Of a DNA stretch of 64,000 bases, positions 42,141 through 59,611 are shown piece after piece. Numbering within the stretch: position 1 is the stretch's first letter; each line of letters begins with the position of its first letter. Made by a program: the position numbers and the translations under genes. Origin of the DNA: an uncultured bacterium. Its GTDB lineage: Bacteria > Oederibacteriota > Oederibacteriia > Oederibacteriales > Oederibacteriaceae. The stretch lies in assembly GCA_965112635.1 (NCBI GenBank), contig OZ218778.1, positions 437,807 to 501,806 of the forward strand, read 5' to 3'. Under the pieces are notes generated by a model. That model was not told the origin of the DNA, ran no database searches, and saw only the letters and a program-made list of their open reading frames with translations.

Positions 42141-43118
42141 CTAGCCTTTGCCCTGCACCAGGGCCAGGTCCGCGTCCACCATCATGGTCACCAATTCCTT
42201 CAATTTAACCTTTGGCTTCCAGCCCAGGATCTTCCTGGCCTTGGAATAATCGCCCTGCAACAGGTTGACCTCGGCGGGCCTGTAAAAATCCTTGTCCACC
42301 TTGACGTATTTTTTCCAGTCCAGGCCCGCATGGCCGAAAGCAAGCTGGACAAACTCCCTGACGCTGTGCGTTTCTCCGGTGGCGATCACATAATCATCCG
42401 GCTTGCTCTGGTGCAGCATCAGCCACATGGCCTCGATGTAATCCCTGGAAAAACCCCAGTCCCGTTTCGCTTCCAGGTTGCCCAGCCTCAGCTCACGGGC
42501 CAGCCCGCATTTGATCTGCGCGACCGCGTGGGTGATCTTGCGCGTCACGAACTCAAAACCTCTCCGGGGAGATTCGTGGTTGAACAGGATGCCGCTGCAG
42601 CAGAACATGCCGTAACCTTCCCGGTAATTGCGGGTCAGATCAAAACCAGCGACCTTGGATATGCCGTAGGGAGACCGGGGATGGAACGGGGTATCCTCGT
42701 TCTGGGGAATCTCCCTGGCTTTGCCGAACATTTCACTGGAGGCGGCAAAATAAAACTTGCACTTCGGAGCCGATTCCCTGATGGCGGTAAGAATATGATG
42801 GGTGCCGTTGATGTTCGTATTGAGGGTGGAGAACTCGTCCTCAAAGGAATAGCTCACGAAACTCTGGGCCGCCAGATGGTAGCATTCATCGGGCTTTATC
42901 TTGAGGATGACCTTGAACAGGCTGGGGAAGCTTTCCAGGGACCCGGCATGCAGGGTGATCTTGTTTAAAATATGCCTAATTCTCCACATCTGGTGTTCCG
43001 GGTCTTCCAAAGCGACCCGCCTGACGATCCCATGGACCTGGTAACCTTTTTTAAGCAAGAATTCTGATAAATAAGAGCCGTCCTGGCCGTCAATTCCCGT
43101 GATCAGAGCCTTTTTCAT
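42141..43118 (-). CDS. gmd: GDP-mannose 4,6-dehydratase
   Basis: ITGIDGQDGSYL..., YHLAAQS, SSEMFG and YGISK give near-canonical Gmd conservation over the full length. Confidence 0.9.
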   Translation of the reverse strand: MKKALITGIDGQDGSYLSEFLLKKGYQVHGIVRRVALEDPEHQMWRIRHILNKITLHAGSLESFPSLFKVILKIKPDECYHLAAQSFVSYSFEDEFSTLNTNINGTHHILTAIRESAPKCKFYFAASSEMFGKAREIPQNEDTPFHPRSPYGISKVAGFDLTRNYREGYGMFCCSGILFNHESPRRGFEFVTRKITHAVAQIKCGLARELRLGNLEAKRDWGFSRDYIEAMWLMLHQSKPDDYVIATGETHSVREFVQLAFGHAGLDWKKYVKVDKDFYRPAEVNLLQGDYSKARKILGWKPKVKLKELVTMMVDADLALVQGKG

Positions 43119-43164
43119 ATCTTCTCAGTTCCCCTCCCCGTAAGTTTTGCTGGTCTGTGCGCGA

Positions 43165-43225
43165 TCTTTAAAAACTAGAATTACATTTTAGCCTGTTTTG
43201 AGGGTATAAACTACCCCAAACCTGC
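43165..43225 (+). repeat. Copy 1 of a ~60-bp dispersed repeat with core ttttagcctgttttgRgggNRtaaactaccccaaac
   Basis: Compared directly with 46100-46165; the core contains a conserved hairpin (ttggggg...ccccaa). Confidence 0.5.
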
Positions 43226-43316
43226 ACTTTTGCCACGGTACCCACTAAGATTTTTAGATAGAGATGTGATAAAATTTGTTCAATTGTACTAAAACAAACT
43301 TGGATATTGCTAGGAG

Positions 43317-43628
43317 ATGGGAAAAATGCCTGTTCAAATTACCGTTGACGACAAAAAAATAGCCGATTTCTGCGTGCGGAACCATATCAGGAAACTATCC
43401 TTTTTCGGATCGGTGTTGGAGGAAAAATTCAGGCCGGACAGCGATATTGACGTTTTGTTGGAATTCGATACCCAATATCCTGTTGGTTTCAGGATCATTG
43501 ACATGGAAGAAGAGCTTTCCCGTCTGTTGGACGGCCACAGGGTGGATATTGTAAATGCTAAATACCTTAATCCCCGCATGAGGAACAATGTGTTGGCCGG
43601 GGCGGAAATGCACTATGCCCAGGGATGA
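43317..43628 (+). CDS. Minimal nucleotidyltransferase (MNT) antitoxin of a HepT/MNT module
   Basis: Pol-beta-type NTase motif GS...DSDIDVLLEF. Confidence 0.8.
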   Translation: MGKMPVQITVDDKKIADFCVRNHIRKLSFFGSVLEEKFRPDSDIDVLLEFDTQYPVGFRIIDMEEELSRLLDGHRVDIVNAKYLNPRMRNNVLAGAEMHYAQG

Positions 43629-43953
43629 AATGATTTATCTGGGGCATATGCTGGATATGACCCAAAAGGCGGTTGATTCGCTAAGAGGAAAATCCCGTGC
43701 CGATTATGATGGGGATGAAATTCTAAGACTGGCCTTGGCTCACCTGGTGCAGACCATCGGAGAAGCAGCTTCCCACGTGTCAAAAGATACTCACGCGAAA
43801 TACCCCAATATCCCATGGAAAAAAATTATCGGGATGCGGCACAAAGTCGTTCACGACTATATGTATGTGGATTATGACATCCTGTGGGACGTTGTTTCCA
43901 TTGAGCTTCCCGCCATTATTCCTCAACTCAAAAAAACATTGGGCATTAATTAA
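43615..43953 (+). CDS. HepT-like (DUF86) toxin, HEPN RNase
   Basis: Overlaps the MNT gene by 14 nt. DUF86/HepT conservation includes an Rx4HxY-type motif (RHKVVHDY). Confidence 0.8.
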   Translation: MPRDEMIYLGHMLDMTQKAVDSLRGKSRADYDGDEILRLALAHLVQTIGEAASHVSKDTHAKYPNIPWKKIIGMRHKVVHDYMYVDYDILWDVVSIELPAIIPQLKKTLGIN

Positions 43954-43984
43954 GCGCTGCGGCACTGTGCCGCCTCCGTGTCAT

Positions 43985-44013
43985 GCCGAGGCCAGCTGAA
44001 GGCTGGCCTCGGC
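43985..44013. terminator. Perfect 12-bp stem hairpin (gccgaggccagc-tgaa-gctggcctcggc) between the convergent HepT and GMC genes
   Basis: Inverted repeat read directly from the sequence, lying between two convergent genes. Confidence 0.5.
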
Positions 44014-44025
44014 AATCAACCCCTT

Positions 44026-45633
44026 TTAAATGCCAGATTGCTTCGTCCTCAGCCCTTTGACCGCCTGGTCCGCGATACGCATGGCTATGGCCATGATGGC
44101 GAAAGACAGGTTCTTGGCTGGAAGCACCGGAAATACTCCGGCATCAGCCACATAAACATTTTTGGTGCAAGCCAGTTTGCCATCGGCTTCGGTCCGGTAA
44201 ATGAGGTTCGGGTCATTGCTCATAGCTAAAGTCCCGGCGTAATGGATGCCGTTCCCCGGTGAGGGGTACTGGACCAGGGAACTGTGGGACAAAAACCCCG
44301 CCTTGCGGAAAAGTTTGATGAGATGCTCCTCTACCTTCCCCACTTGGGGCGGCCGGCTATAGAATACCGAGAGCGCCCCATTGGGTTCTAATTTTAAATA
44401 ATTGTCCGGGTTGGGCTCATCCTGGTAAAAAAGCTGCAGCACTGAAATAGCGGGAAGCACATATTTGCTGGCCATCAGGTTGCCCCGCCCAGCCAGGGGC
44501 AGGTCCCGGAATATATCCGAAGCCAGGGGCGAACTGATCCCGAAATAGCTGGCCTGCACATAGCTGTCCCACAGGGGGCCCTCATAAACCGCGTTGAGCT
44601 GGACCAACCCTGTGCTTTGTTCTTCTATCGGGTATCCCAGAAACCGCGGATGCAAAAACGGGATCAGGCTGATCTGGTTTTCCAGCAAAGGCAAATGTGT
44701 TTTAAAGTCGTTGTAGGACTGCAAAACGATCCTGGCGCTGTTGAGCGTGCCTGCGCCCAGGATCAATTTTTTCGCCTCAAATCGTTCCTCGGTCCCTTTC
44801 CTGAGATTTTTGACCGATACTGCGACCCCGTCGTCCGTGTCTTCGAATTTTTCCACCAGGCACTGGTCCGCATATTCTATCTTTTTATCGGCTATCAATT
44901 TTTTCATGGTCATGGCCGGAGAGTATATATATGGTAGGTCTGCCTGCCAAAAAGTAAGATTGTCGTAGTTGCAGGCAGGCCGGTCTGGGAGCGGTTCGCT
45001 GAGCAGACAAACTCTGGAATGGCCCAGAGTAAATCCGTTCCTGCGGAAACAGGATTTTTTAGCCTGGTATTTTTGCAGCAGATGAGCGGACAAGGTATCC
45101 AACCTTAAAGGTTTTTGCAGTCCTGTCCCCGGCCCCAAATGGCCGGCCATGTCATCCACGGCTCCGCTGACCCCTACTTCCCGGGTCAGAATATCGAAGT
45201 AAGGCTCCAGATCTTTGCCTTTAAAAGGGAACTGCTTGAGATCCTTGTCCAGGTAGCGGTAAACTCCCCCGCCCCAGGCATTGGCCAGGCCTCCCAGAGC
45301 AAAACTTTGTACCGGGTCAAACCCCTGTTTGTTGAGTGGAGCCAGCTCTGTGGTCCGGTCTATGACATATCGGAAACGCGGAGCTTTGAGTTTGGAGGTC
45401 ATATAGCTGTGATGCAGGTTATGCAGAGACTCGTACTGCGGCCCGAGCAGGTATTGCCTTTGGTTCTCGTCCTTTTCCCTGAGCTCAAAAATATTTTTGG
45501 ACAGCACCGGTTCTGGCCCGGGTTTTATGCCCACATCCAGGACCAAGGGCTTGAACCCTCTTTGGACCGCCTGGTAAGCTGCCCAGGCTCCGCTGCACCC
45601 TGAACCCACAATGATCAAATCATGAATGGGCAT
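44026..45633 (-). CDS. GMC-family FAD-dependent oxidoreductase
   Basis: N-terminal DLIIVGSGCSGAW (FAD-binding) and a C-terminal GMC active-site region (YVADAGVFP). Confidence 0.8.
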   Translation of the reverse strand: MPIHDLIIVGSGCSGAWAAYQAVQRGFKPLVLDVGIKPGPEPVLSKNIFELREKDENQRQYLLGPQYESLHNLHHSYMTSKLKAPRFRYVIDRTTELAPLNKQGFDPVQSFALGGLANAWGGGVYRYLDKDLKQFPFKGKDLEPYFDILTREVGVSGAVDDMAGHLGPGTGLQKPLRLDTLSAHLLQKYQAKKSCFRRNGFTLGHSRVCLLSEPLPDRPACNYDNLTFWQADLPYIYSPAMTMKKLIADKKIEYADQCLVEKFEDTDDGVAVSVKNLRKGTEERFEAKKLILGAGTLNSARIVLQSYNDFKTHLPLLENQISLIPFLHPRFLGYPIEEQSTGLVQLNAVYEGPLWDSYVQASYFGISSPLASDIFRDLPLAGRGNLMASKYVLPAISVLQLFYQDEPNPDNYLKLEPNGALSVFYSRPPQVGKVEEHLIKLFRKAGFLSHSSLVQYPSPGNGIHYAGTLAMSNDPNLIYRTEADGKLACTKNVYVADAGVFPVLPAKNLSFAIMAIAMRIADQAVKGLRTKQSGI

Positions 45634-46075
45634 GGATTAGCTCCCGGAAAAGCTTGGTCTTTAATAACATAGTTCCCTTGGTCACCTTGTAAGCCGACCG
45701 GACACCCTGATACGCCATCACCAGACAAGCCTTGAACCATGATTTCCTGCGGTTCACGAACAAATGAAAATACCTGCGGTCCGTCTCCACCAAATAGAAC
45801 AGTATTTGCATTTTTTTGGACAAAGGATTATTTTTATCGCGAACGCGCCAAGCGTACTCCACAGCTTCCAAGTCATAATATTTTTCCACTGCCCGGGCCA
45901 GCCGGGTTTGCCACAAGGAAATCTCTGCATCCGTAAAAACAATGCGGTGGGCTTCCTGATAAGCTCGGACTATGCTCGCGTCAGGCTTAAATCCAAAAAC
46001 CTCCTGGCACAGCCATCCACATTCTTTCTCTAAAATAATCCCCATCTCATTTTCCCCGTTTGTCTTATCCGGCAT
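45620..46075 (-). CDS. Hypothetical protein (about 150 aa); overlaps the GMC start codon region
   Basis: ORF only, with no recognisable motifs. The start is uncertain (ATG at 46075 has a good RBS; the track uses TTG at 46120). Confidence 0.4.
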   Translation of the reverse strand: MPDKTNGENEMGIILEKECGWLCQEVFGFKPDASIVRAYQEAHRIVFTDAEISLWQTRLARAVEKYYDLEAVEYAWRVRDKNNPLSKKMQILFYLVETDRRYFHLFVNRRKSWFKACLVMAYQGVRSAYKVTKGTMLLKTKLFRELIHAHS

Positions 46076-46099
46076 ATCTTTCCCTTTTTCCTTGCAGAC

Positions 46100-46165
46100 T
46101 CTTAAAAACATGAAAAACAAAACCTTATTTTAGCCTGTTTTGGGGGCGTAAACTACCCCAAACAC
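46100..46165 (+). repeat. Copy 2 of the ~60-bp dispersed repeat (see 43165-43225)
   Basis: cttaaaaac...ttttagcctgttttgggggcgtaaactaccccaaac, in the same orientation as copy 1. Confidence 0.5.
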
Positions 46166-46359
46166 ACCACTTCCAGGGGCTAATTTATCAAGGGTTCCAG
46201 GGGAGTTTCAATAGGGGATGGGGGGGAGGCGGGATGTCAAATGTCAGACCTGCCCTCCGTAGTGTTTTAAAGGGGGGACGCGACCCCGGGTGTTCTCTCA
46301 GCACCCCCTTGTGGGGTGGTTCTAGAACTACCGAACTAGCGTCTCCGATGCAATGGCCG

Positions 46360-47076
46360 CTACCTAGAGTTTTGTGGTATGCCCTGATTAGCGGGAGCTG
46401 GTGGTCTTAACTGGGGACCATTAAGAACAGCATCCACAAACCGATTCCTTGTTAAAGCGACAATAATTGCATTTCCATCCTTACGGTCAGGATGCAATTG
46501 CCAGAGAACATTTCGCTTTTGATCCTGGTCATACTTTAATACAAACCCCAGAAAATCGAAAAACACCGACACTCGGCTATTGAGCCAGGCGACAGGAAGG
46601 CATTTTTCAGGATTGGGAACTAAGTAATAATCAATCTTGTTTGTGCGTTTAAAACTACCAAAACCCTTTTGAAAACGAGGATAGTCTCTCTTTAGCCGCG
46701 TCCCATCAACAACCCATGCCATTTTTCCATAGAAAGCCTCACGGCTTTGCACCTCACTAGCCTTGATCGCAGAATGCTGAAATTCTATTACGAACCCATT
46801 CTTAGCCTTTATATCTGCAATATGTTTTTCTCCAGTTGTATCTGTATGGATTACCTCCTGCCAATTATCAGGAAAATGTTCTTTCCATTTTCTGTGCCAC
46901 TCTGTTTCATTTTCCCACCAATGATCACAGTCTGCGGTTCTTTTGTGAGCCCAATGCCAGACCTTTACCAGCCCGCACTTGGCGATCATTTCACTTTCGC
47001 AATATCTGCAAGTACCCCGCAGCCCTCGCTGAGCCTCTACCTTGTTTCCATTTACCTTAGCAAATTTCATATTCAT
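46360..47076 (-). CDS. CoiA-like family protein (competence protein CoiA-like; predicted Zn-finger plus nuclease-fold domain)
   Basis: CRYCESEM...C Zn-ribbon, then HWAHKR...H...E...DIKAKNGFVIEFQHSAI, which matches the CoiA-like domain pattern (HFAH...iEfQ.S). First gene of the AT-rich island. Confidence 0.6.
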   Translation of the reverse strand: MNMKFAKVNGNKVEAQRGLRGTCRYCESEMIAKCGLVKVWHWAHKRTADCDHWWENETEWHRKWKEHFPDNWQEVIHTDTTGEKHIADIKAKNGFVIEFQHSAIKASEVQSREAFYGKMAWVVDGTRLKRDYPRFQKGFGSFKRTNKIDYYLVPNPEKCLPVAWLNSRVSVFFDFLGFVLKYDQDQKRNVLWQLHPDRKDGNAIIVALTRNRFVDAVLNGPQLRPPAPANQGIPQNSR

Positions 47077-47105: not shown

Positions 47106-47276
47106 TTACTTTTGCGAACCGTTTTTTTCTAATAATGAACGGATATTTTTTAAATGCTCTTCTATTTTATCTAACTTGAAATACCAAAGGACAATGCTTC
47201 GAAAAATATAAAACAATGAAATCATAATAGCCAAAACTATAATAAAAGCTACTAAGTAGGCCACCGCATCAACCAT
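47106..47276 (-). CDS. Small (56 aa) single-TM peptide with a perfect Shine-Dalgarno sequence; not in the ORF track because it is shorter than 60 aa
   Basis: GGAGGATTTT-ATG, then MVDAVAYLVAFIIVLAIMISLFYIFRSIVLWYFKLDKIEEHLKNIRSLLEKNGSQK, which has one strongly hydrophobic helix. Translated manually. Confidence 0.35.
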   Translation of the reverse strand: MVDAVAYLVAFIIVLAIMISLFYIFRSIVLWYFKLDKIEEHLKNIRSLLEKNGSQK

Positions 47277-47506: not shown

Positions 47507-48451
47507 TTACAATAATTTTCCTTGGTTTTTATTAGCATATGCTAAATGCCGTAAGTTGTAGAATTGATCCTTTTTAAAATAAATATCCTGACTAATTATT
47601 TGTTTCTTGGATAATTTATTTTTAGGAAAGAAGGATAATCCATATTTTTTATAATACACACTTTTAAAATTAGATGCATTAAACTCCATAATCTGTATTG
47701 GTAATGAGTTTTGCAACATTTTCTCCGCACAGTTACATTTTCCTTGATGTTCCGAGGTATTATCCAATATCTGCCCAAAGGTCCCTGTAATTAAATCTAC
47801 GTACTGAATAATATGACTCTGTTCTTTATATAATGCTTCCTTCTCATGATCCGAATCCACTTCCAATATTTCATGGTTCTCAAATTTGATATGTTCATCA
47901 TTAATAAAAGCTTTAGTGCCAATCTCAAAAATTGGTTTAGTGTGAAAATTGTCCTCAGATTCTCTGGTTTTTGAATCAGAATAAATATTTTTTATTGTTA
48001 CCTTATCAAATCCAGCGGACTTATTTAGAAAAAACCATTTTAAAGCACCATATAATCCTATTTGGAAAAATCTATTATAGATTTTAAAATCCCTGGTTTG
48101 ATTATCATTCCATAAAGATTTATCCACTTTTGTCAAATCTACCCCAAAAAAATAAAAATAACTTGATTTCATATTTTGATTACAAAATAAATTTAACCAT
48201 CTATTTGCCAAATCATTCTGCGTCAGCGTATTGTTCAGCTTATGAAAATGCAATTCTTTGTTCCACGTGCTTTTTTCACGTTGCTGCAAAAGAGAACCAA
48301 CGAATTTGTCTTCTTTATCAAACGGTATAAATAAATAACCGTGATATAACCACGATTTCGATAATATTCTTTCATCATGAAAAACATTGCATTTAATTTC
48401 TTTATTTTGTACAGGAATATTAAAAAGATCCACATTCATTTCAGTAAGCAA
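47507..48451 (-). CDS. Hypothetical 314-aa protein, very AT-rich and Lys/Asn/Phe-rich; no recognisable domain
   Basis: A long uninterrupted ORF in the AT-rich island, immediately downstream of the HerA-like gene in the same orientation. Confidence 0.5.
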   Translation of the reverse strand: MLTEMNVDLFNIPVQNKEIKCNVFHDERILSKSWLYHGYLFIPFDKEDKFVGSLLQQREKSTWNKELHFHKLNNTLTQNDLANRWLNLFCNQNMKSSYFYFFGVDLTKVDKSLWNDNQTRDFKIYNRFFQIGLYGALKWFFLNKSAGFDKVTIKNIYSDSKTRESEDNFHTKPIFEIGTKAFINDEHIKFENHEILEVDSDHEKEALYKEQSHIIQYVDLITGTFGQILDNTSEHQGKCNCAEKMLQNSLPIQIMEFNASNFKSVYYKKYGLSFFPKNKLSKKQIISQDIYFKKDQFYNLRHLAYANKNQGKLL

Positions 48452-48458
48452 CCATGTT

Positions 48459-50153
48459 CTAGTCCTGCTTATAAGCTGGCTTTGGAAAAATAACCTTCAC
48501 TGGCTGACGAAATATTGCATGCTGAACGAGTAGCTCCCCTTTGGTTAATCTTGTCACCGAAGACTTTAATTCCTGTTCTAAAAATCGGTAATCCGGTTGC
48601 ATGATTTCGCTTGATGTACTACGTCCAATTATTTTTGTTGCGGCATTTCCGGTCACGCGTGGATGCACGGCACTCAAAAACTGTTGGGCTGAAAGCAAAA
48701 TAACACCAAGAGACCGGCCACGTTCTGATATATCAAGTATCTGTTCAATAAGTGGAGATTCCTTACCACCGGAAGGTGCGTATTTATTGAGCTCGTCTAC
48801 AAAAATCAATACTTTCTTGGGAAGATTAAGTGTTTCATCAGACTCTGCAAACATTTCATAAATATTTCGTATCACATCTCCGAAAACGAAAGCCTGTTCA
48901 TGATCTAGTAATTTTGCTATATCAATAACATATGTATGTCCGCCTTCTATTTTATGTATTTCATCTGCCAGGTGGTGCTCTAGACGTGTGCGACGGTCCG
49001 TAAAAAGACCCGTAGTACGCGTCTTTACCATTCGGCGAAGGTGTCTCCGAAACTTACCGACAGAACTGGGTTTTATGTCACCTATTCCTTGGGATTTTCC
49101 AGAATCAGCAAGAGGATATCCGTCCAGAAGGCTACTCCAATCCTGAACTTTAGCAAACGGTGATTTCGCTGTCTTATTCATTAAACCGCTCGATATTTCT
49201 CCTATAAGGGAATCAATAGTTTCTGTTGGATCAGGAATGCTGGAAAATAGTAAATCCAGCTTATCCGCAGAGTCATTTAATTCATAAGCATAAACTTTGT
49301 GTTGATTTGGCCTGACAAAACTATTGGCCTCTCCATTTTTAGCTCGAGGCAAATAGTAATGGACATTCTGAAATGGTTTTGGCTCTAACCCAAGACGCAG
49401 CCAAAGACCCTTTTGCTCTTCACTTAAATCTTTTGGCGGCTCATCAATCTTAAGCAAATCTCCATGCTTAACATTTAAAATGATAACAGCGACTTCCGAT
49501 GATTCAATTTTTTGAATAATAGACTGTAGTAAAAACATTGCATAACTTGTTTTAGTAGCCAGCCCACTAATCCCTGAAATATTGACGTGAGCCGATTCGG
49601 GACCGATTACATAATCTTTATCAAGATAAACTACTGCCTCAACATCGTTACTCATTTTAATTAGTCCGGCAGGGATCCGATTCTCTTGTTTCATAGTGTC
49701 TATTCCTAAAGCCGCATGGATGCCTGACTCGTCAGCAAACCGAACATTTCTTTCATTTTCAATGGGCATGTAGATTCCATCTTTAGTTGTTCCATCAGAA
49801 TTTTTGCCACCGCCGTCATTCATCATAACGTTAGCTTTAGCAAGAGTTGCTCCCACCCGTGGCGTATTTGGCTCTTCCGCAACTGATCCAAAATTATTTG
49901 ACACAAAATTCGCGAGATGACTTGCAGCGTCCGTCCTGTGCTCCAGACCAGCGATTAGCCCATATGTTTTACTTCCGTTAAAATGTTCCGATTCAACAAT
50001 GTCAAAAGGATTTACAAGAACATTCGCAGTTATCCAGAAATTAAACTTGTCGGCTGTAGTTGGTTCCTTGTCTGTCGCTGATGTCCTCCCGATTATCGGA
50101 TTTTCTTTCTTATCACTCATATACGCTACCTCCTCAAAGCAGAATTTATACAA
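48459..50153 (-). CDS. HerA/FtsK-superfamily-like P-loop ATPase (tentative)
   Basis: Deviant Walker A region (NISGISGLATKTS), Walker B hhhhDE (VLIFVDELNKY) and a downstream Arg-containing segment (ERGRSLGVILLSAQQ); 564 aa. Overlaps the upstream NurA-like gene by 28 nt. Confidence 0.5.
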   Translation of the reverse strand: MYKFCFEEVAYMSDKKENPIIGRTSATDKEPTTADKFNFWITANVLVNPFDIVESEHFNGSKTYGLIAGLEHRTDAASHLANFVSNNFGSVAEEPNTPRVGATLAKANVMMNDGGGKNSDGTTKDGIYMPIENERNVRFADESGIHAALGIDTMKQENRIPAGLIKMSNDVEAVVYLDKDYVIGPESAHVNISGISGLATKTSYAMFLLQSIIQKIESSEVAVIILNVKHGDLLKIDEPPKDLSEEQKGLWLRLGLEPKPFQNVHYYLPRAKNGEANSFVRPNQHKVYAYELNDSADKLDLLFSSIPDPTETIDSLIGEISSGLMNKTAKSPFAKVQDWSSLLDGYPLADSGKSQGIGDIKPSSVGKFRRHLRRMVKTRTTGLFTDRRTRLEHHLADEIHKIEGGHTYVIDIAKLLDHEQAFVFGDVIRNIYEMFAESDETLNLPKKVLIFVDELNKYAPSGGKESPLIEQILDISERGRSLGVILLSAQQFLSAVHPRVTGNAATKIIGRSTSSEIMQPDYRFLEQELKSSVTRLTKGELLVQHAIFRQPVKVIFPKPAYKQD

Positions 50154-51253
50154 CCTTGGATAACTTCCGTAGAAAAGAACAACTGTTTTGAAGCATGTTC
50201 AGCTTGATAGATAGGGTAAAGATGAGAATGCCAACGATCATCTGATCCATAAGGGGTCACAAATCGCTCTGCGAGTAAGGCTCCTGATATTTGATCCAAA
50301 AGCTCTGTTGTTAAAGGTTGTTCTTCAAGAATAGGAATCTCTACCTTTATTACGCCAAATAAGGGGTATAAAACCTGCTGTGATTTCCTTAATCTTAAAT
50401 ACCAGAATGCAGTTTTGCCCCCATATCCTTCATACGCAGCAGTTCGATTATTTTGTGGCAGATTACCAAGTAAGGAAACTACGCTCTCACTCTGCCTAGC
50501 TTTACCTTGCTGAGAATAAAATTTTTGTACAGTTGTAAAATTTTTTGCTACTCCAATTACCTTGGGGCTTTGCATGCCACCGCCAAAATGACCGAAGGAG
50601 ACAAGACCATCCTTTAAAAGCCATCCATCGGGAACCTTATCACGAAATTCTTTAGCAATTTCAAACTCCATGGTGCTCATCAAATGTCTTGTTTTGCTCC
50701 TTCCCCTTTCTCTTAAATCCTGCGTTTCCAGGAATTCACCGCTAAGGGCATCAAGTTCAATTAAATCTTTAATAATAATATTTACCCCTGCATCTTTAGT
50801 TGAGTCTTGTATTTTTTGCCACGCCAACTCTGATACTCTTGATTTAGCTATCAAAAGAAACCACTGATGTCTCTTGAAAACAGAAGTTAACCTTCCCTCA
50901 CCACTACGTTTTAAAATAGTAACTGATATTTGAGAAAGGAATATCGGGGTTGCGCGGTCATGTTCAAGGCCGGTTGCCAGAAAATAATGCCGGTAGGAGC
51001 CGTCGAGAAAATACCTGAAAAAATGATTTTGTTCTCTAGTTATTGGCTGTAGTTCCTTGTATTTCCATGTTGGTTTGGGAACTTCAAGTAAAGAATCAAT
51101 TTGCAGGTGATCGCCAACGAGTTTAGTGTCATCCCTTTCTTCTTCTCCAACAAAGGTCATTTCCTCAGTAGCTCCCCCACTAGCGGGAAGTAGCTCTAGT
51201 TGATTAGAAACAACAGACATAATTGATTTAAGGGTACTTACAAATTCCCTCAC
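50126..51253 (-). CDS. NurA-like nuclease (tentative)
   Basis: 375 aa with a NurA-like first catalytic motif (FLDGSYRHYF). An overlapping operon arrangement with a HerA-like ATPase is typical of NurA-HerA pairs. Confidence 0.45.
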   Translation of the reverse strand: MREFVSTLKSIMSVVSNQLELLPASGGATEEMTFVGEEERDDTKLVGDHLQIDSLLEVPKPTWKYKELQPITREQNHFFRYFLDGSYRHYFLATGLEHDRATPIFLSQISVTILKRSGEGRLTSVFKRHQWFLLIAKSRVSELAWQKIQDSTKDAGVNIIIKDLIELDALSGEFLETQDLRERGRSKTRHLMSTMEFEIAKEFRDKVPDGWLLKDGLVSFGHFGGGMQSPKVIGVAKNFTTVQKFYSQQGKARQSESVVSLLGNLPQNNRTAAYEGYGGKTAFWYLRLRKSQQVLYPLFGVIKVEIPILEEQPLTTELLDQISGALLAERFVTPYGSDDRWHSHLYPIYQAEHASKQLFFSTEVIQGCINSALRR

Positions 51254-51758
51254 CTATCCTCCAAACTTAAATTTACTTCCTTTAATTCGTCCTTATTTAT
51301 ACCCCATATATCTGACGCAATCTCATTGATCTGGTCCTCATATTCACTTACATTTATTCCAGACATAACCTTGTCATGACATATTTTCGAGAGTCTTGCC
51401 AATTCTTGGTGAGCTTCTAAAATTTTAGTAAATTTAGGTATTTTTATTTTTTCCAAAATGTGAGTACTCTGTGATGTAGATATTGTGTAAGACCGAACAA
51501 TTAGTCTAGTAATAGACGAATTTAATAGCGCACACAAATAATGAGCTTCTATTTCATCTTGAATATCAACCATCATAAGTTTATGATCTGGAATAATTGT
51601 TTTACCATTTAATTCGGAAATAACAGCACATTCAAACTCTGAAGATTGTTCCTTCCAAACAACCTTAAACGGACTAAATGTATACGGTCCAATATTATAA
51701 ATAGCGTATGACCTGCCCCCATTCTTTGTACCACTTGTTAAGTTAGAGTTAAGCAGCA
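51250..51758 (-). pseudogene. C-terminal fragment of an N6-adenine DNA methyltransferase (TaqI_C/Eco57I-type target-recognition region), truncated at its 5' side by the IS3 insertion
   Basis: ...FKVVWKEQSSEFECAVISELNGKTIIPDHKLMMVDIQDEIEAHYLCALLNSSITRLIV... has the hallmark LLNS motif of the TaqI_C domain. The track ORF's first ~45 codons (51759-51897) lie inside the IS end and are spurious. Confidence 0.5.
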
Positions 51759-52465
51759 TGACATAGGGCAATGCAAGGTTGCAGCAACCTTGCTTCCGGA
51801 GCTGGTGGCCGATACCCCAGTGAGCTATGCGGTCTTTTTGTATTGTACTCCTTCCTCCAGTTTTCGATAACATACTTTGCCTCCCACAGATTATCAAATA
51901 TTTCTCCGGCTAAGACCTCGTCCCTGAGTTTCCCATTAAAAGACTCGCAGTATCCGTTCTCCCACGGACTTCCAGGTTCGATAAATAAAGTCTTAACGCC
52001 GATATTACCCAGCCAACCTCTGATCATTTCTGAAGTAAACTCGCTTCCGTTATCCGACCTGATGTACTCAGGAATACCTCTACTGATGAATAGATCCATC
52101 AAACATTCCTGAACATCATCCGCCTTGAGACTTCTTCCCACTACCAGAGCCAGGCACTCCCTGGTGTATTCGTCTATCACGGTCAAGATCCGGAACGCTC
52201 GTCCTTCGCTTGTTCTATCCTTTACAAAATCATAGCTCCAGACATGGTCCTTATGATCTGGCCTTAATCTGACACAGGAGCCGTCGTTGAACCACAGACG
52301 CCTTCTTTTACGCTGCTTCTTCGGTATTTTTAGCGCTTCCTGTCTCCATATTCGCTCAACTTTCTTGTGATTAACCAGCCATCCCTCATCTCTGAGCATT
52401 GCCGTAATCCTACGATATCCGTAACGGCCATACTGGTTGGCCAGATTGATGATAGTTTCTGCCAA
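51749..52465 (-). CDS. IS3-family transposase OrfB (rve integrase core), 5'-truncated/separated from orfA by the IS256 insertion
   Basis: YGYRRITAMLR...HKDHVWSYDFV...IDEYTRECLA...E DDE-type integrase core. Confidence 0.85.
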   Translation of the reverse strand: MAETIINLANQYGRYGYRRITAMLRDEGWLVNHKKVERIWRQEALKIPKKQRKRRRLWFNDGSCVRLRPDHKDHVWSYDFVKDRTSEGRAFRILTVIDEYTRECLALVVGRSLKADDVQECLMDLFISRGIPEYIRSDNGSEFTSEMIRGWLGNIGVKTLFIEPGSPWENGYCESFNGKLRDEVLAGEIFDNLWEAKYVIENWRKEYNTKRPHSSLGYRPPAPEARLLQPCIALCHAA

Positions 52466-52585
52466 CCCCCAATCCCTTCCTTCGCGCTTTTGCTGGTACC
52501 TGGTTGTGTACCATTCCTGGGTGTAACTTCAACGAGGGGAAAGGCAAGGTTAGATTGCAGCAATCTAACCTTGCGGCCCCAAAAA

Positions 52586-53906
52586 TAAGTCCACGGGCGT
52601 AGACTAGGTGATTGCTTAGGTCACCAAACCCAAAATAAAAGGAGGTCTACACCCGTGAAGTCATTATCCCAAAGAATTGAGATTTATACGAATCAGAAAA
52701 TCAGAGAAAAAGTCAGAAAGATCGCACAGCCCGGTGTCGCTCTGGAAGTAATTGGCCAGGAGGTCAATGCCATCATTGCCCAGGCTTTAGATATTCAACT
52801 GGAGGCTGAAAGGGACGAGTTTTTGGGCCGTCAGCCTTATGAACGCCTTGAAAACAGCCCTAAAAGAAACGGTTTTAAATCCACCTCTGTCCCCGGCTTT
52901 TTTGGCAGACTTTTTCTGCACAAACCAGCTCTACGCCAGGGGTCCCTTCACTCGCCCTTGCTTACCGCCCTCAAACAAGCTGGAAAAGGCCTGGCTTCCT
53001 TCCTCGCCATCCGCTTCTGGCTCAAAGGCGCTGCCACTCGCTCTACCGCCGCTGAGATAAATGCCGCTTTGGGCACAAAGCTCTCTCACTCCACCGTCTC
53101 CACTCTCACCAACGCCTTGGAGCCAGCCATCCGTCAGTGGATGAATCGTCCCATTCCTCCCAACATCACCTACCTGCTCCTGGACGCCGCCTACCTGCCT
53201 GTCAGAAGACCTGGTTTTACCTCCAAACAAGCTCTATTGCTCGCCCTAGGCATGGATTCCTTTGGCAATCGCCATGTCCTGGGTTTCCTTCTCGGCGATA
53301 GAGAGTCCTTGGACTCCTGGCAGGCTTTTATCAATGACCTCCTCAAAAGAGGCCTTAACCGCAACACCCTCAGGCTCGTCATCTCCGATGAACACAAGGC
53401 CATTGAGCAGGCCGTCAAAAACCTCCTGGCTGTCCCTCACCAGCTCTGCCTGGTCCACAAGATCCGAAACCTCAGAGCCATTATGCCTCGCCGTGACTGG
53501 GGTGCCTTCCTTAACGATTTCAAAGCTATCTATTGGGCCGATTCCCGCAAACTGGCTCTCCAGGCCTTTGGCCGCCTCCAAGCTCGCTGGATGAAACTCT
53601 ATCCTAGAGCTACGGCTATGGCTCTCGATAGGTTCGACAACCTCACCACCTTCATGAACGAACCCCAGCATGTCTGGCGCACTCTCCGCTCCAGCAATCT
53701 CATCGAACGCTTTATCGCCGAGATCAAACGGCGCACCCGTGCTGCCGGCACCATGCACTCCGAATTGGAGGTCGCTAAGATCGTCTGGTCTGTTTCTACC
53801 ACTCAGGAAGATAATTGGTCTAAAAGAAAACTCTGGAAATCTCAAGGAGGTGATCTGGTTCAGGAAGGCTTGCTAAATGTTGCTTAACCTACTACCCGTG
53901 GACTTA
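52586..53906 (+). mobile_element. IS256-family insertion sequence with imperfect terminal inverted repeats (taagtccacgggCgtagACtagg / cctaCtacccgtggactta)
   Basis: The inverted repeats were found by eye and flank the transposase gene. Confidence 0.65.
52655..53887 (+). CDS. IS256-family (Mutator-like) transposase
   Basis: 410-aa product with the DDE region YLLLDAAYL...VISDEHKAIE...E and IS256-type N-terminal conservation. It starts at GTG. Confidence 0.9.
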   Translation: MKSLSQRIEIYTNQKIREKVRKIAQPGVALEVIGQEVNAIIAQALDIQLEAERDEFLGRQPYERLENSPKRNGFKSTSVPGFFGRLFLHKPALRQGSLHSPLLTALKQAGKGLASFLAIRFWLKGAATRSTAAEINAALGTKLSHSTVSTLTNALEPAIRQWMNRPIPPNITYLLLDAAYLPVRRPGFTSKQALLLALGMDSFGNRHVLGFLLGDRESLDSWQAFINDLLKRGLNRNTLRLVISDEHKAIEQAVKNLLAVPHQLCLVHKIRNLRAIMPRRDWGAFLNDFKAIYWADSRKLALQAFGRLQARWMKLYPRATAMALDRFDNLTTFMNEPQHVWRTLRSSNLIERFIAEIKRRTRAAGTMHSELEVAKIVWSVSTTQEDNWSKRKLWKSQGGDLVQEGLLNVA

Positions 53907-54046
53907 ACAACTTACACCCGAAAACTTGACATAATCCTGGTACCTCTGCGTTGAGCGCCCTTGCTCTACTGCTTTGCATGCCCGGCGCTCAGAAACTCCC
54001 ATATTTACGCAGACTTCTTCTACCGCTGCGCGTCTTTTCACCGGGC

Positions 54047-54337
54047 TTAATATTTTCCCGAACTTATCACCTTGTTGTATTCCTTCAGTATCTGGATATC
54101 CAAAGCTTGATTTGCGATCACTTTCTTTAACTGGTTATTTTCTTGCTCCAGCGACCTTAATCGCTTGGCCTCGTCCACTTTCATCCCGCCGTATTTCTGC
54201 CGCCACTTGTAGTAGGTATTCGCCGATATTCCTTTTGCCCGACAAAGCTCCTCTACCGTCTTGCCTTTGGCTATCTCTACCTCAAACTCCCGTAGCATGG
54301 ATACGACCTGCTCGGGTTTGTTGTATTTCCTTGGCAT
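54047..54337 (-). CDS. IS3-family transposase OrfA (HTH)
   Basis: MPRKYNKPEQVVSMLREFEVEIAKGKTVEELCRAKGISANTYYKWRQKY...LEQENNQLKK gives an HTH plus a leucine zipper, as in IS3 OrfA. Confidence 0.8.
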   Translation of the reverse strand: MPRKYNKPEQVVSMLREFEVEIAKGKTVEELCRAKGISANTYYKWRQKYGGMKVDEAKRLRSLEQENNQLKKVIANQALDIQILKEYNKVISSGKY

Positions 54338-54406
54338 AAAAATCCCCCTTCCTTTGTCCTTCCTTTAGAGTTATTCTAACTCAAAAGGTGGACCAGTTTT
54401 AGGGGG

Positions 54407-55264
54407 TCAGGTCATGGCACCCTCTTTTTTTTGGTCTAAATAGGCCCTGACCCTTTCCTGGTTACTTGAAAAATTCTGTTCTTGCGCATCCTCAGAAGGC
54501 ATAGGCTGTCCGGTTTCCCCGTCAAGTGAGGCCGTTGTTTCAACCACAGAACCTGTCCCGGCCTCCGGCCTGGGAGGTCCTGGAACAGGCCTGTCCTGGG
54601 TCCGTGTTTTGGTCCCCGGCCCTGTCATGGCTGTGGTATCCCTGGTTTTTCCCGGTTTGCTTACGGCCAGGGCCAGCACTTCCAGCCAGGAGAAACGGAA
54701 CATGGAGAGCATGGCCTGCTTGATCTTTTCCACTTCCTTGGGATCGGTCCGGTCCCTCAGGAGCCTCAAGCGCCTGAGGTTCCATTCGCTTATTATTTGC
54801 AGGAGGGAAAGGACCAGGCTAAACCAGATGGACGAGACCAGGAACATGATCCGGTTATCCCCGGCTATGGACAAGTCTGCCCACCCCAATTTCTCCAGGA
54901 TATGCAGCAATATCCAGAGGCTAAACCACATAGCCAGGGTAATTAAGGAGGGTATCCTAAACCAGGGCCTGTCCGGCTCGGTCTGGCCTGCCCGGAAAAA
55001 CGCCCAGGCTTTGAACTCCTGCCAGTAAACATAGAGGCTGAACAGGACCGTATAGCACAGGAAAAACCACCTGGTGCCAGCCAGGGCAGTCAGCGCATTA
55101 GTGTTGCCCCAGAAAATGTTGTAAAAACCCCGATGATAGAATTTCAAGTTTATGTCCAGGGGATCGGCCCAAACCCGAAAAAGGATACAGCCCAGGTTCA
55201 GCCCGGCGCTGAGCCAGGCCAGCATGGAAAACAGGCTTTTGGGGAGGTTTTCAGACCTAGTCAT
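54407..55264 (-). CDS. Integral membrane protein with a Pro/Thr-rich C-terminal tail; function unknown
   Basis: Six or more TM helices, then a low-complexity tail (PGTKTRTQDRPVPGPPRPEAGTG). Confidence 0.5.
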   Translation of the reverse strand: MTRSENLPKSLFSMLAWLSAGLNLGCILFRVWADPLDINLKFYHRGFYNIFWGNTNALTALAGTRWFFLCYTVLFSLYVYWQEFKAWAFFRAGQTEPDRPWFRIPSLITLAMWFSLWILLHILEKLGWADLSIAGDNRIMFLVSSIWFSLVLSLLQIISEWNLRRLRLLRDRTDPKEVEKIKQAMLSMFRFSWLEVLALAVSKPGKTRDTTAMTGPGTKTRTQDRPVPGPPRPEAGTGSVVETTASLDGETGQPMPSEDAQEQNFSSNQERVRAYLDQKKEGAMT

Positions 55265-55311: not shown

Positions 55312-55456
55312 AACTAGTGTCACCACTAGTGTCACCAAGGCATGGGTCATGACACTAGCTAGGCTGGCGGGGCAAGATGATTGTTTATAGCCTGTAATAT
55401 ATAAAGAAACACTAGTGTCATGACTAGTGTCACCAGGCTATGGGTCATGACACTAG
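55312..55456. promoter_or_regulatory. Two ~46-bp blocks of operator-like half-sites (actagtgtca x2, then an inverted tgacactag) about 97 bp apart, in the intergenic region upstream of the T9SS-CTD protein gene
   Basis: Block 1 at 55312-55357 is actagtgtcacc-actagtgtcacc-aaggcatggg-tcatgacactag. Block 2 at 55409-55456 is actagtgtcatg-actagtgtcacc-aggctatggg-tcatgacactag. Confidence 0.5.
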
Positions 55457-55519
55457 TTGGACTGGCCGAGGGTGGCATAAGCTGGCCAGGGGATGGCAAG
55501 GGACTGAGCAGGGATTGTT

Positions 55520-58934: not shown

Positions 58935-59050
58935 AAACCACCTCTTATTTTCCTGTCACTCCCGCGAAAGCGGGAGTCCAGTTAATTTCCTATCACAAAA
59001 CAATGGATTCCCGCTTAAACACTGCGGGAATGACAGCCGAATTTCGGTTG

Positions 59051-59611
59051 TCACTTTTTATAAACGAACACATCCTTCAGGTCTTTTAATCTGAGAAGAA
59101 CCGCGTCTTTTTTGGAAATAATGGGGTCTTTGACCGGCCACTTTACGCCGATGTCCGGGTCGTTCCAGATGATGCCTGCGTCATCCTGGGGCGAATATTC
59201 CGCCGTGGTCTTGTACAGCACTTCGGCCGTGTCGCTCAACATGCACATCCCATGGGCGAACCCGACCGGGATATAGATCATCTTTTTGTTTTCCGCCGAC
59301 AGATCGGCTCCTACCCACCTGCCAAAGGTCGGCGAACCCTGGCGGAGGTCCACAGCCACGTCAAAAATTTCACCCGCGACCACCCGGAGCAGTTTGCCCT
59401 GCGCATGGGGATTTTTTTGGAAATGCAGGCCCCGCAAGACATTCCTGGAGGACACAGAATGGTTGTCCTGCACAAAGTCCTCGGCAATGCCAAAAGCCCT
59501 GAACTCGGAGGATTTATAGGTTTCCATGAAAAAACCGCGCTCATCCTTGAATACTTTGGGTTCGATAAGGATAACTTCGGGGATCTCCAGGCGTTTAAAA
59601 CTGAAAGGCAT
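59051..59611 (-). CDS. rmlC: dTDP-4-dehydrorhamnose 3,5-epimerase
   Basis: RGLHFQ...K...YIPVGFAHGMCMLS RmlC core. Confidence 0.9.
   Translation of the reverse strand: MPFSFKRLEIPEVILIEPKVFKDERGFFMETYKSSEFRAFGIAEDFVQDNHSVSSRNVLRGLHFQKNPHAQGKLLRVVAGEIFDVAVDLRQGSPTFGRWVGADLSAENKKMIYIPVGFAHGMCMLSDTAEVLYKTTAEYSPQDDAGIIWNDPDIGVKWPVKDPIISKKDAVLLRLKDLKDVFVYKK

Follow-up and report, generated by a model that had tools for sequence, protein, structure and literature searches.

What is the role of a short, hairpin-bearing repeat that occurs twice, in the same orientation, on the two sides of a four-gene segment in the genome of an uncultured bacterium of the Oederibacteriota? The stretch of DNA concerned, 64,000 nucleotides of contig OZ218778.1 (positions 437,807 to 501,806 of the forward strand, assembly GCA_965112635.1), is called the window below, and almost every gene between 1 kb and 43.1 kb of it lies on the minus strand. 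An earlier note on this DNA had suggested that the two copies could be attachment or recombination sites of an inserted module, and had offered two fallback ideas, paired regulatory sites and a small family of repeats peculiar to this genome. According to our analysis the repeats look like one duplicated promoter/leader element and not like the ends of a cassette, because each of them stands just upstream of a minus-strand gene for sugar-polymer synthesis. We consider it rather probable that the element is a cis-regulatory 5' element, promoter and transcribed leader taken together; as for its more precise nature, we tentatively prefer, from the sequence and with somewhat less than even confidence, a promoter with an overlapping palindromic operator that has been duplicated before two linked glycan units.

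Both repeat copies are found where the earlier note had placed them, and they share a gapless core of 37 nt in the same orientation, identical at 34 of its 37 positions (92%):

43185..43221, minus strand: core copy 1, minus-strand sequence GTTTGGGGTAGTTTATACCCTCAAAACAGGCTAAAAT; its 3' end lies 66 nt before the ATG of gmd; covariance-model score 68.7 bits.
46127..46163, minus strand: core copy 2, minus-strand sequence GTTTGGGGTAGTTTACGCCCCCAAAACAGGCTAAAAT; its 3' end lies 51 nt before the ATG of a small open reading frame (ORF); covariance-model score 68.1 bits.

The minus-strand consensus of the core is GTTTGGGGTAGTTTAyrCCCyCAAAACAGGCTAAAAT. It includes a palindrome, TTTGGGG-N9/10-CCCCAAA, which spans 24 nt, and GTTT recurs in it at a 10-bp phase. 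The stem, which had been described as conserved in both copies, is indeed a perfect one of 7+7 bp in copy 2 (arms 46139-46145 and 46156-46162), whereas in copy 1 it is broken on the plus strand by a single A.C mismatch, which on the minus strand becomes a G.U pair. A degenerate 36-nt pattern has exactly two matches in the window against 0.00 expected from 100 shuffles; there is no third core site within the 64 kb, where no other position has more than 24 of the 37 bases matching. The covariance model, built from the two core copies alone, found nothing else credible when it was run on 202 kb of sequence.

The position of the repeats relative to genes is equally regular. Each copy lies, in the same orientation, a short way before a minus-strand start codon (66 nt and 51 nt). 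Either form of the fallback, regulatory sites in a pair or a small family specific to this genome, fits the data. Their plus-strand contexts differ: copy 1 is ahead of a toxin-antitoxin (TA) pair, and copy 2 is ahead only of the 3' end of a convergent gene. On the minus strand each core is followed by a region that may be aligned with its counterpart:

43116..43184, minus strand: downstream part of copy 1, a diverged homologous 5' untranslated region (UTR), with block B as GTTTTTAAAGA (43165-43175) and AAGATATG at the start codon.
46073..46126, minus strand: downstream part of copy 2, a diverged homologous 5' UTR, with block B as GTTTTTAAGAG (46099-46109) and AAGATATG at the start codon.

Block B, common to both copies, reads GTTTTTAA(A)GA on the minus strand and is separated from the core by a spacer of 9 or 17 nt; together with the identical AAGATATG at the ATG it is what the two 5' regions share. 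The regions from core to ATG align with a score of 29.0, against 13.9 +/- 3.9 for shuffled sequences, of which 2 in 2000 reach 29.0. Upstream of the core no similarity is detectable (flank alignment 5.0, shuffle mean 8.7). The edge of the homology is thus abrupt on the 5' side of the core, and on its 3' side there is a weak continuation to the ATG. From this one-sidedness it follows that the duplicated unit would begin where the core begins on its 5' side (about -43) and reach as far as the start codon, over about 106 nt in one copy and 91 nt in the other. The core is 92% identical, whereas the adjoining UTR is roughly half identical and has indels, and this difference argues for selection on the core.

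The genes around and between the copies agree with the content given in the earlier note (HepT/MNT, GMC oxidoreductase, small ORF), as Pfam confirmed:

42141..43118, minus strand: gmd, GDP-mannose 4,6-dehydratase (Pfam PF16363, E = 5e-123), the first gene after copy 1.
43317-43628, plus strand: MNT (Pfam PF18765 / PF01909).
43588-43953, plus strand: HepT (Pfam PF01934).
43959..44014, no strand assigned: two GC-rich hairpins (stems of 7 bp and 13 bp) that separate HepT from the GMC gene convergent with it.
44026..45633, minus strand: GMC-family oxidoreductase, overlapping the stop of the small ORF.
45620..46075, minus strand: ORF of 151 aa, the first gene after copy 2, a conserved partner of the GMC oxidoreductase with no Pfam domain.

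Downstream of copy 1, gmd heads a co-directional glycan array of ~37 kb that extends down to about 5.6 kb. Downstream of copy 2, the start of the small ORF at ATG 46075 has a purine-rich ribosome-binding site in its favour, as well as homologues (140-154 aa) which likewise start just before the conserved region, and the small ORF and the GMC gene should form one transcription unit, since the start of the latter overlaps the stop of the former. This part of the segment has a GC content of 0.50-0.55, which matches that of gmd. Similar pairs are met in distant relatives: in L005 a small ORF with 30% identity precedes a GMC gene with 39% identity within a methyltransferase cluster, and in L026-L028 a 56-57%-identical GMC belongs to a module with the order large membrane protein, GT2, small ORF (154 aa), GMC, epimerase, methyltransferase. 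On this conservation the pair looks like glycan-modification machinery, and therefore both units headed by the repeat would belong to the same pathway. We also noticed that the small-ORF homologues (140-154 aa) carry the motif DLEA[IV]E...QILFYL.E...[YF]F..FVN and are translationally coupled to a GMC-type flavoprotein; the module presumably resembles a two-step oxidation/reduction of a lipid-linked sugar, with DprE1/DprE2-like logic.

Within the segment, the only part which looks clearly foreign and is typically mobile is the MNT/HepT pair (43317..43953, 0.64 kb; PADLOC PDC-S09), with a GC content of 0.43-0.48 and convergent orientation to the GMC gene. The GC-rich hairpins at 43959..44014 probably insulate the copy-2 unit from gmd. 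An operator of MNT/HepT was rejected as an explanation of the repeats, as copy 2 is without an adjacent plus-strand gene. A second TA pair, consisting of a 95-aa protein and a PemK-family toxin, occurs just past the right end of the window (L032, 4807-5444) among co-directional glycan genes upstream of pgi, which makes two TA modules (MNT/HepT and the PemK-family pair) embedded in the glycan super-locus.

Searches for relatives of the element gave no homologue. Rfam 15 gave 0 matches for the whole window at the gathering score, and only noise for 42900-46500 at E <= 10. In the larger collections, to which the source genome itself does not belong, the degenerate pattern had 3 chance matches with dissimilar flanks among 185,579 species-representative genomes of GTDB; IMG/VR gave 0 matches; a looser pattern had 16 matches in JGI metagenomes, none of them the element, since loop and tail differ (15 of the 16 are copies of a single unrelated locus from different samples, and the remaining one is another unrelated site). 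The whole 3.3-kb region gave no match in PLSDB by blastn, and a literature search for the motif string returned irrelevant primer matches only.

Close relatives of the organism are lacking in the protein collection, where each of the proteins tested was a singleton at 90% identity. The best match of gmd is 86% identical (L022), and its named matches come from metagenome-assembled genomes of Omnitrophota, which supply the closest ones, and Elusimicrobia; the gene is a poor taxonomic marker. The glycan locus of L022 is partly similar, but it is not collinear upstream of gmd (rml to gmd). No element is present upstream of gmd in L022-L025, the nearest relative, or upstream of the small-ORF/GMC homologues in L005 and L026-L028. 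Other assemblies of the same organism (L001 and L029-L032, 99.99% identity) extend the window by ~9 kb on the left and ~5.4 kb on the right (L030, L032), and no third copy occurs in these extensions, which gives a total of 2 copies in ~78 kb of contiguous sequence of a 2.88-Mb genome. The organism also occurs in run ERR11523656. The sequence of the element has not been described before and is specific to this lineage; the kind of feature that it represents is ordinary.

We propose that both copies may represent one duplicated 5' control module that heads tandem minus-strand units of a single glycan-biosynthesis locus, where the small ORF with the GMC oxidoreductase would be the first unit, and gmd with about 30 genes the second. 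TAAAAT, the last six bases of the core, would then be the -10 hexamer, with transcription predicted to start about 7 nt past it, near 43178 and 46120, and with 5' UTRs of about 59 and 44 nt. The palindrome, placed over the -35 position, would be the binding site of a putative regulator, and both units would consequently answer the same signal. TAAAAT ends the core in both copies, matches TATAAT in 5 of 6 positions, among them the A at 2 and the T at 6, and recurs at ~47.3 kb of the window as the -10 of a textbook promoter, TTGACA-16-TAAAAT; all 3 substitutions of the core fall into the would-be spacer between -35 and -10. Regulated sigma-70-type promoters are similar in having a near-consensus -10 that closes a block of ~37 bp, a palindrome over the -35/spacer and a typical distance to the start codon, and in that two functionally related operons share the block.

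Each copy coincides exactly with a point where foreign DNA gives way again to the co-directional glycan array. Because convergent TA genes and two GC-rich hairpins separate the units, gmd would need a promoter of its own: MNT/HepT and the flanking hairpins would cut it off from the upstream unit, and the second copy of the promoter would restore its expression. The duplication was probably selected because the inserted TA module split the array. The sequence itself shows the repeat, how it is oriented and placed with respect to the genes, how far the homology extends on either side, and that the units downstream of both copies have a glycan role; promoter activity, start sites, the regulator and the history of the duplication are things that we infer.

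A number of observations weigh against a promoter at this place. The hexamer at 17 bp from TAAAAT, TAGTTT, agrees with TTGACA in 2 of 6 positions, and the core contains no TTGACA-like hexamer; a TG extension is absent as well, the -10 being preceded by GC, and a consensus promoter scan made no call at the core. The element differs in these respects from regulated sigma-70-type promoters. Measured between their centres, the half-sites of the palindrome are separated by 16-17 bp, an unusual spacing for a dimeric regulator, and no regulator gene is found in the window. Since the palindrome stands in place of a -35, the promoter would have to be activator-dependent or repressor-controlled, or to be served by an alternative sigma factor. 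Covariation and phylogenetic footprinting are uninformative here, because there are only two copies and no orthologous elements. Finally, conservation of the hairpin is better when it is read as minus-strand RNA, and this speaks for transcription of the element. Among alternative sigma factors, a sigma-54 site (GG-N10-GC) was rejected, as copy 1 has AC in place of GC, and SigB/SigF-like GTTTAy-N12-GGCTAA, sigma-28 and sigma-32 motifs gave partial matches by eye only.

If the core is transcribed, promoters have to be sought further upstream, and two candidates, relevant in that case only, are seen there:

46182..46211, minus strand: candidate sigma-70-type promoter upstream of copy 2, TTGAAA-18-TAAATT, preceded by TG.
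43255..43283, minus strand: weaker candidate promoter upstream of copy 1, TTGAAC-17-TATCTA, found by eye and below the scan threshold.

The core would in this case be an element of the 5'-leader RNA (or of the non-template DNA), composed of the hairpin and a conserved 10-nt tail, while the promoters would not be conserved; we regard this as possible but doubtful. The hairpin might stabilise a pause at which a processive antiterminator is loaded, for example a specialised NusG paralogue in the manner of ops/RfaH, Bacteroides opsX/UpxY or LoaP leaders, or it could be a 5' stabilising or translational-control structure. RNA structure prediction, which the earlier note had listed among its checks, gives a consensus fold of 11 pairs (-11 kcal/mol) for the minus strand and of 7 pairs (-4.9) for the plus strand. 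Compared with shuffles, the folding of the 40-nt hairpins is better (z = -2.4 and -1.7), but that of the whole leaders is not (z = 0.1 and -1.1). Three variable paired positions are wobble-compatible on the minus strand only (CG/UG, GU/GC, UA/UG), but for two sequences such a pattern arises by accident in roughly 1 case in 8, and compensatory double changes are absent. The last conserved U follows the main stem at a distance of 10 nt, as would be expected at a hairpin-dependent pause (about 9-12 nt). The upstream promoter candidates, sigma-70-like at copy 2 and weaker at copy 1, speak for a transcribed core as well, yet such candidates are no commoner than in shuffled sequence, and the upstream flanks have no homology. 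In Bacteroides capsule operons the opsX elements, multipartite leader elements of ~40 bp situated 25-111 nt before the first start codon, load UpxY (PMC11685472), and very long polysaccharide operons of several phyla commonly need such antitermination (PMC6391919, PMC12691694). The present element is like the opsX/LoaP leaders in its length of ~40 bp, in the putative nascent-RNA hairpin followed by a conserved stretch, and in its location tens of nt before the first start codon (PMC11685472); it differs in having no sequence similarity to them, and neither unit head nor the ~78 kb as a whole (window, L030 and L032) encodes a NusG paralogue. With the enterobacterial JUMPstart/ops of RfaH it shares the position of a short element just upstream of the first gene of long polysaccharide clusters, a GGTAG and a small hairpin possible in the non-template (coding) strand; it belongs, however, to another lineage, its TGGGGTAG agrees with the ops 8-mer GGCGGTAG at 6 of 8 positions only, short of an ops sequence, and no Rfam family, JUMPstart included, is matched even at E <= 10. 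Copy 2, moreover, heads a unit of two genes only. That the core is a lineage-specific counterpart of ops/opsX, where a pause hairpin and a non-template signal would load a NusG-type (or other) antiterminator at long glycan operons, is in our opinion unlikely. We know of no such antitermination system described in this uncultivated lineage.

The remaining explanations leave regulation aside. The proposal of the earlier note, that the copies are attL/attR-like sites between which the 2.9-kb segment (TA, GMC and small ORF) was inserted or can be excised by site-specific recombination, has in its favour direct repeats identical at 34 of 37 positions that flank, in one orientation, a discrete gene set with a TA module of the mobile type, and the adjacent low-GC island whose insertion sequence (IS) elements could have erased a third site. 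It is not supported, and we hold it to be very improbable: neither the four enclosed genes nor their neighbours include an integrase or recombinase by Pfam, the nearest transposases being more than 5 kb away (51.7-53.9 kb); ARAGORN finds no tRNA or tmRNA in the window that could be a target; the DNA of the GMC/small-ORF part has the GC content of glycan genes and encodes conserved machinery, so that only the TA pair looks foreign and most of the segment looks native; att arms would not be expected to have homology that extends one-sidedly as far as the start codons; and plasmids and viral contigs (PLSDB, IMG/VR) contain nothing similar. A sparse genome-wide family of palindromes, similar to repetitive extragenic palindromic (REP) sequences or miniature inverted-repeat transposable elements (MITE) and having no specific role in glycan synthesis, appears to us improbable, although not to the same degree. 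The element is short, intergenic, hairpin-bearing and lineage-specific (no matches in GTDB representatives, JGI or IMG/VR), and 2 copies per 64 kb would fit a family of ~100 copies in a genome of 2.88 Mb; but at least 15 other intergenic regions in the ~78 kb have no third copy, orientation and position relative to the start codons are the same in both copies, with homology that reaches the ATG, both copies are at 5' ends of genes where REPs are usually at 3' ends, and neither terminal inverted repeats nor target-site duplications are seen. Hardly credible, finally, is a neutral remnant of a local duplication or gene conversion with no present function, as a core 92% identical beside a UTR decayed to roughly half is hard to explain without selection, even though the element has only two copies and no conservation outside this locus.

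Several known repeats with some likeness to the element were also compared and rejected. The attC sites of integrons resemble it, as attL/attR do, in that direct repeats flank a discrete gene set including a toxin-antitoxin pair, but a palindrome of 24 nt is far too short for attC (57-141 bp), and its ends, GTTT...AAAC, have the opposite order to RYYYAAC...GTTRRRY. In comparison with the 38-bp terminal repeat of the Tn3 type (GGGG...TAAG), the copies are direct and not inverted, and the spacing of internal motifs differs. The superficial likeness to a 37-nt CRISPR type II repeat (ATTTTAG...CTGTTTTG...CCCAAAC), noticed by eye, was taken for a coincidence; the window has neither an array nor cas genes.

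In the wider locus, the region of 5.6-43.1 kb constitutes one large glycan locus of the ABC-transporter type, with about 30 genes downstream of gmd: nucleotide-sugar enzymes, many GT2 and GT1 transferases, C- and O-methyltransferases, B12/radical-SAM enzymes, a Wzm/Wzt-type ABC exporter, an initiating sugar transferase and a YfhO-like protein. Just past copy 2 a low-GC island begins (46.4-51.9 kb, GC down to 0.28), genes of IS elements included:

46360-47076: CoiA-like nuclease, in the low-GC island.
47507-48451 and 50126-51253: two proteins (314 and 375 aa) that are matched neither in Pfam nor in PADLOC.
51250-51897: fragment of a type IIG restriction-modification protein, C-terminal ~150 aa, apparently truncated.
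51749-52465, minus strand: gene with an rve (IS3-type) integrase domain, adjoining the Mutator-family transposase gene.
52655-53887, plus strand: Mutator-family (IS256-type) transposase gene.

The island also encodes a 564-aa protein with weak HerA/mad8-like ATPase similarity. Together with the CoiA-like nuclease and the type IIG fragment this supports only loosely the label of a defence island, which had been given to this neighbour of the repeats. An IS3-type orfA-like frame is seen by eye at about 54050-54334 on the minus strand, which would mean an IS3 element interrupted by a second IS, and an independent 387-kb assembly contig of the same organism would, by arithmetic, end near 51250-54340. 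Past the island the minus-strand glycan genes resume with rmlDBCA (57.1-60.5 kb), and more of them follow beyond the window in L032.

Some smaller features of these regions may be mentioned. Between the stop of the CoiA-like gene and copy 2 there is a G/C-rich non-coding stretch of 195 nt (46165-46360) with nested hairpins (AAGGGGG/CCCCCTT, 46270-46310), which on neither strand folds better than shuffles and which possibly serves the island as its terminator region. A hydrophobic ORF of 56 aa (47106-47276, minus strand), situated in the gap of 430 nt that precedes the CoiA-like gene, has a strong AAAGGAGG ribosome-binding site and a TTGACA-16-TAAAAT promoter. Just upstream of an ORF of 285 aa (54407-55264, minus strand) to which Pfam has no match, at 55313-55466, two direct repeats of 56 nt each, 86% identical and 98 nt apart, are made of ACTAGTGTCA...TGACACTAGT palindromes and look like a tandem operator or another regulatory repeat. 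The intergenic region of rmlC and rmlB (58935-59060) shows by eye two GC-rich hairpins of the TCCCGC...GCGGGA type.

The repeat is no evidence of a new mobile element, and it would be a routine cis-regulatory feature unless it acts in antitermination; an ops-like antitermination signal in this uncultivated lineage, if real, would raise its significance. The arrangement would illustrate how a co-directional array can be kept expressed after a TA insertion, by duplication of a promoter/leader. If the proposal of a duplicated control element is true, the element marks the heads of transcription units in a glycan locus of more than 40 kb in a poorly known uncultivated bacterium, and puts two of these units under one common control, which helps operon annotation. 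The 37-nt motif would then also be a handle for finding the regulator or the rest of the regulon.

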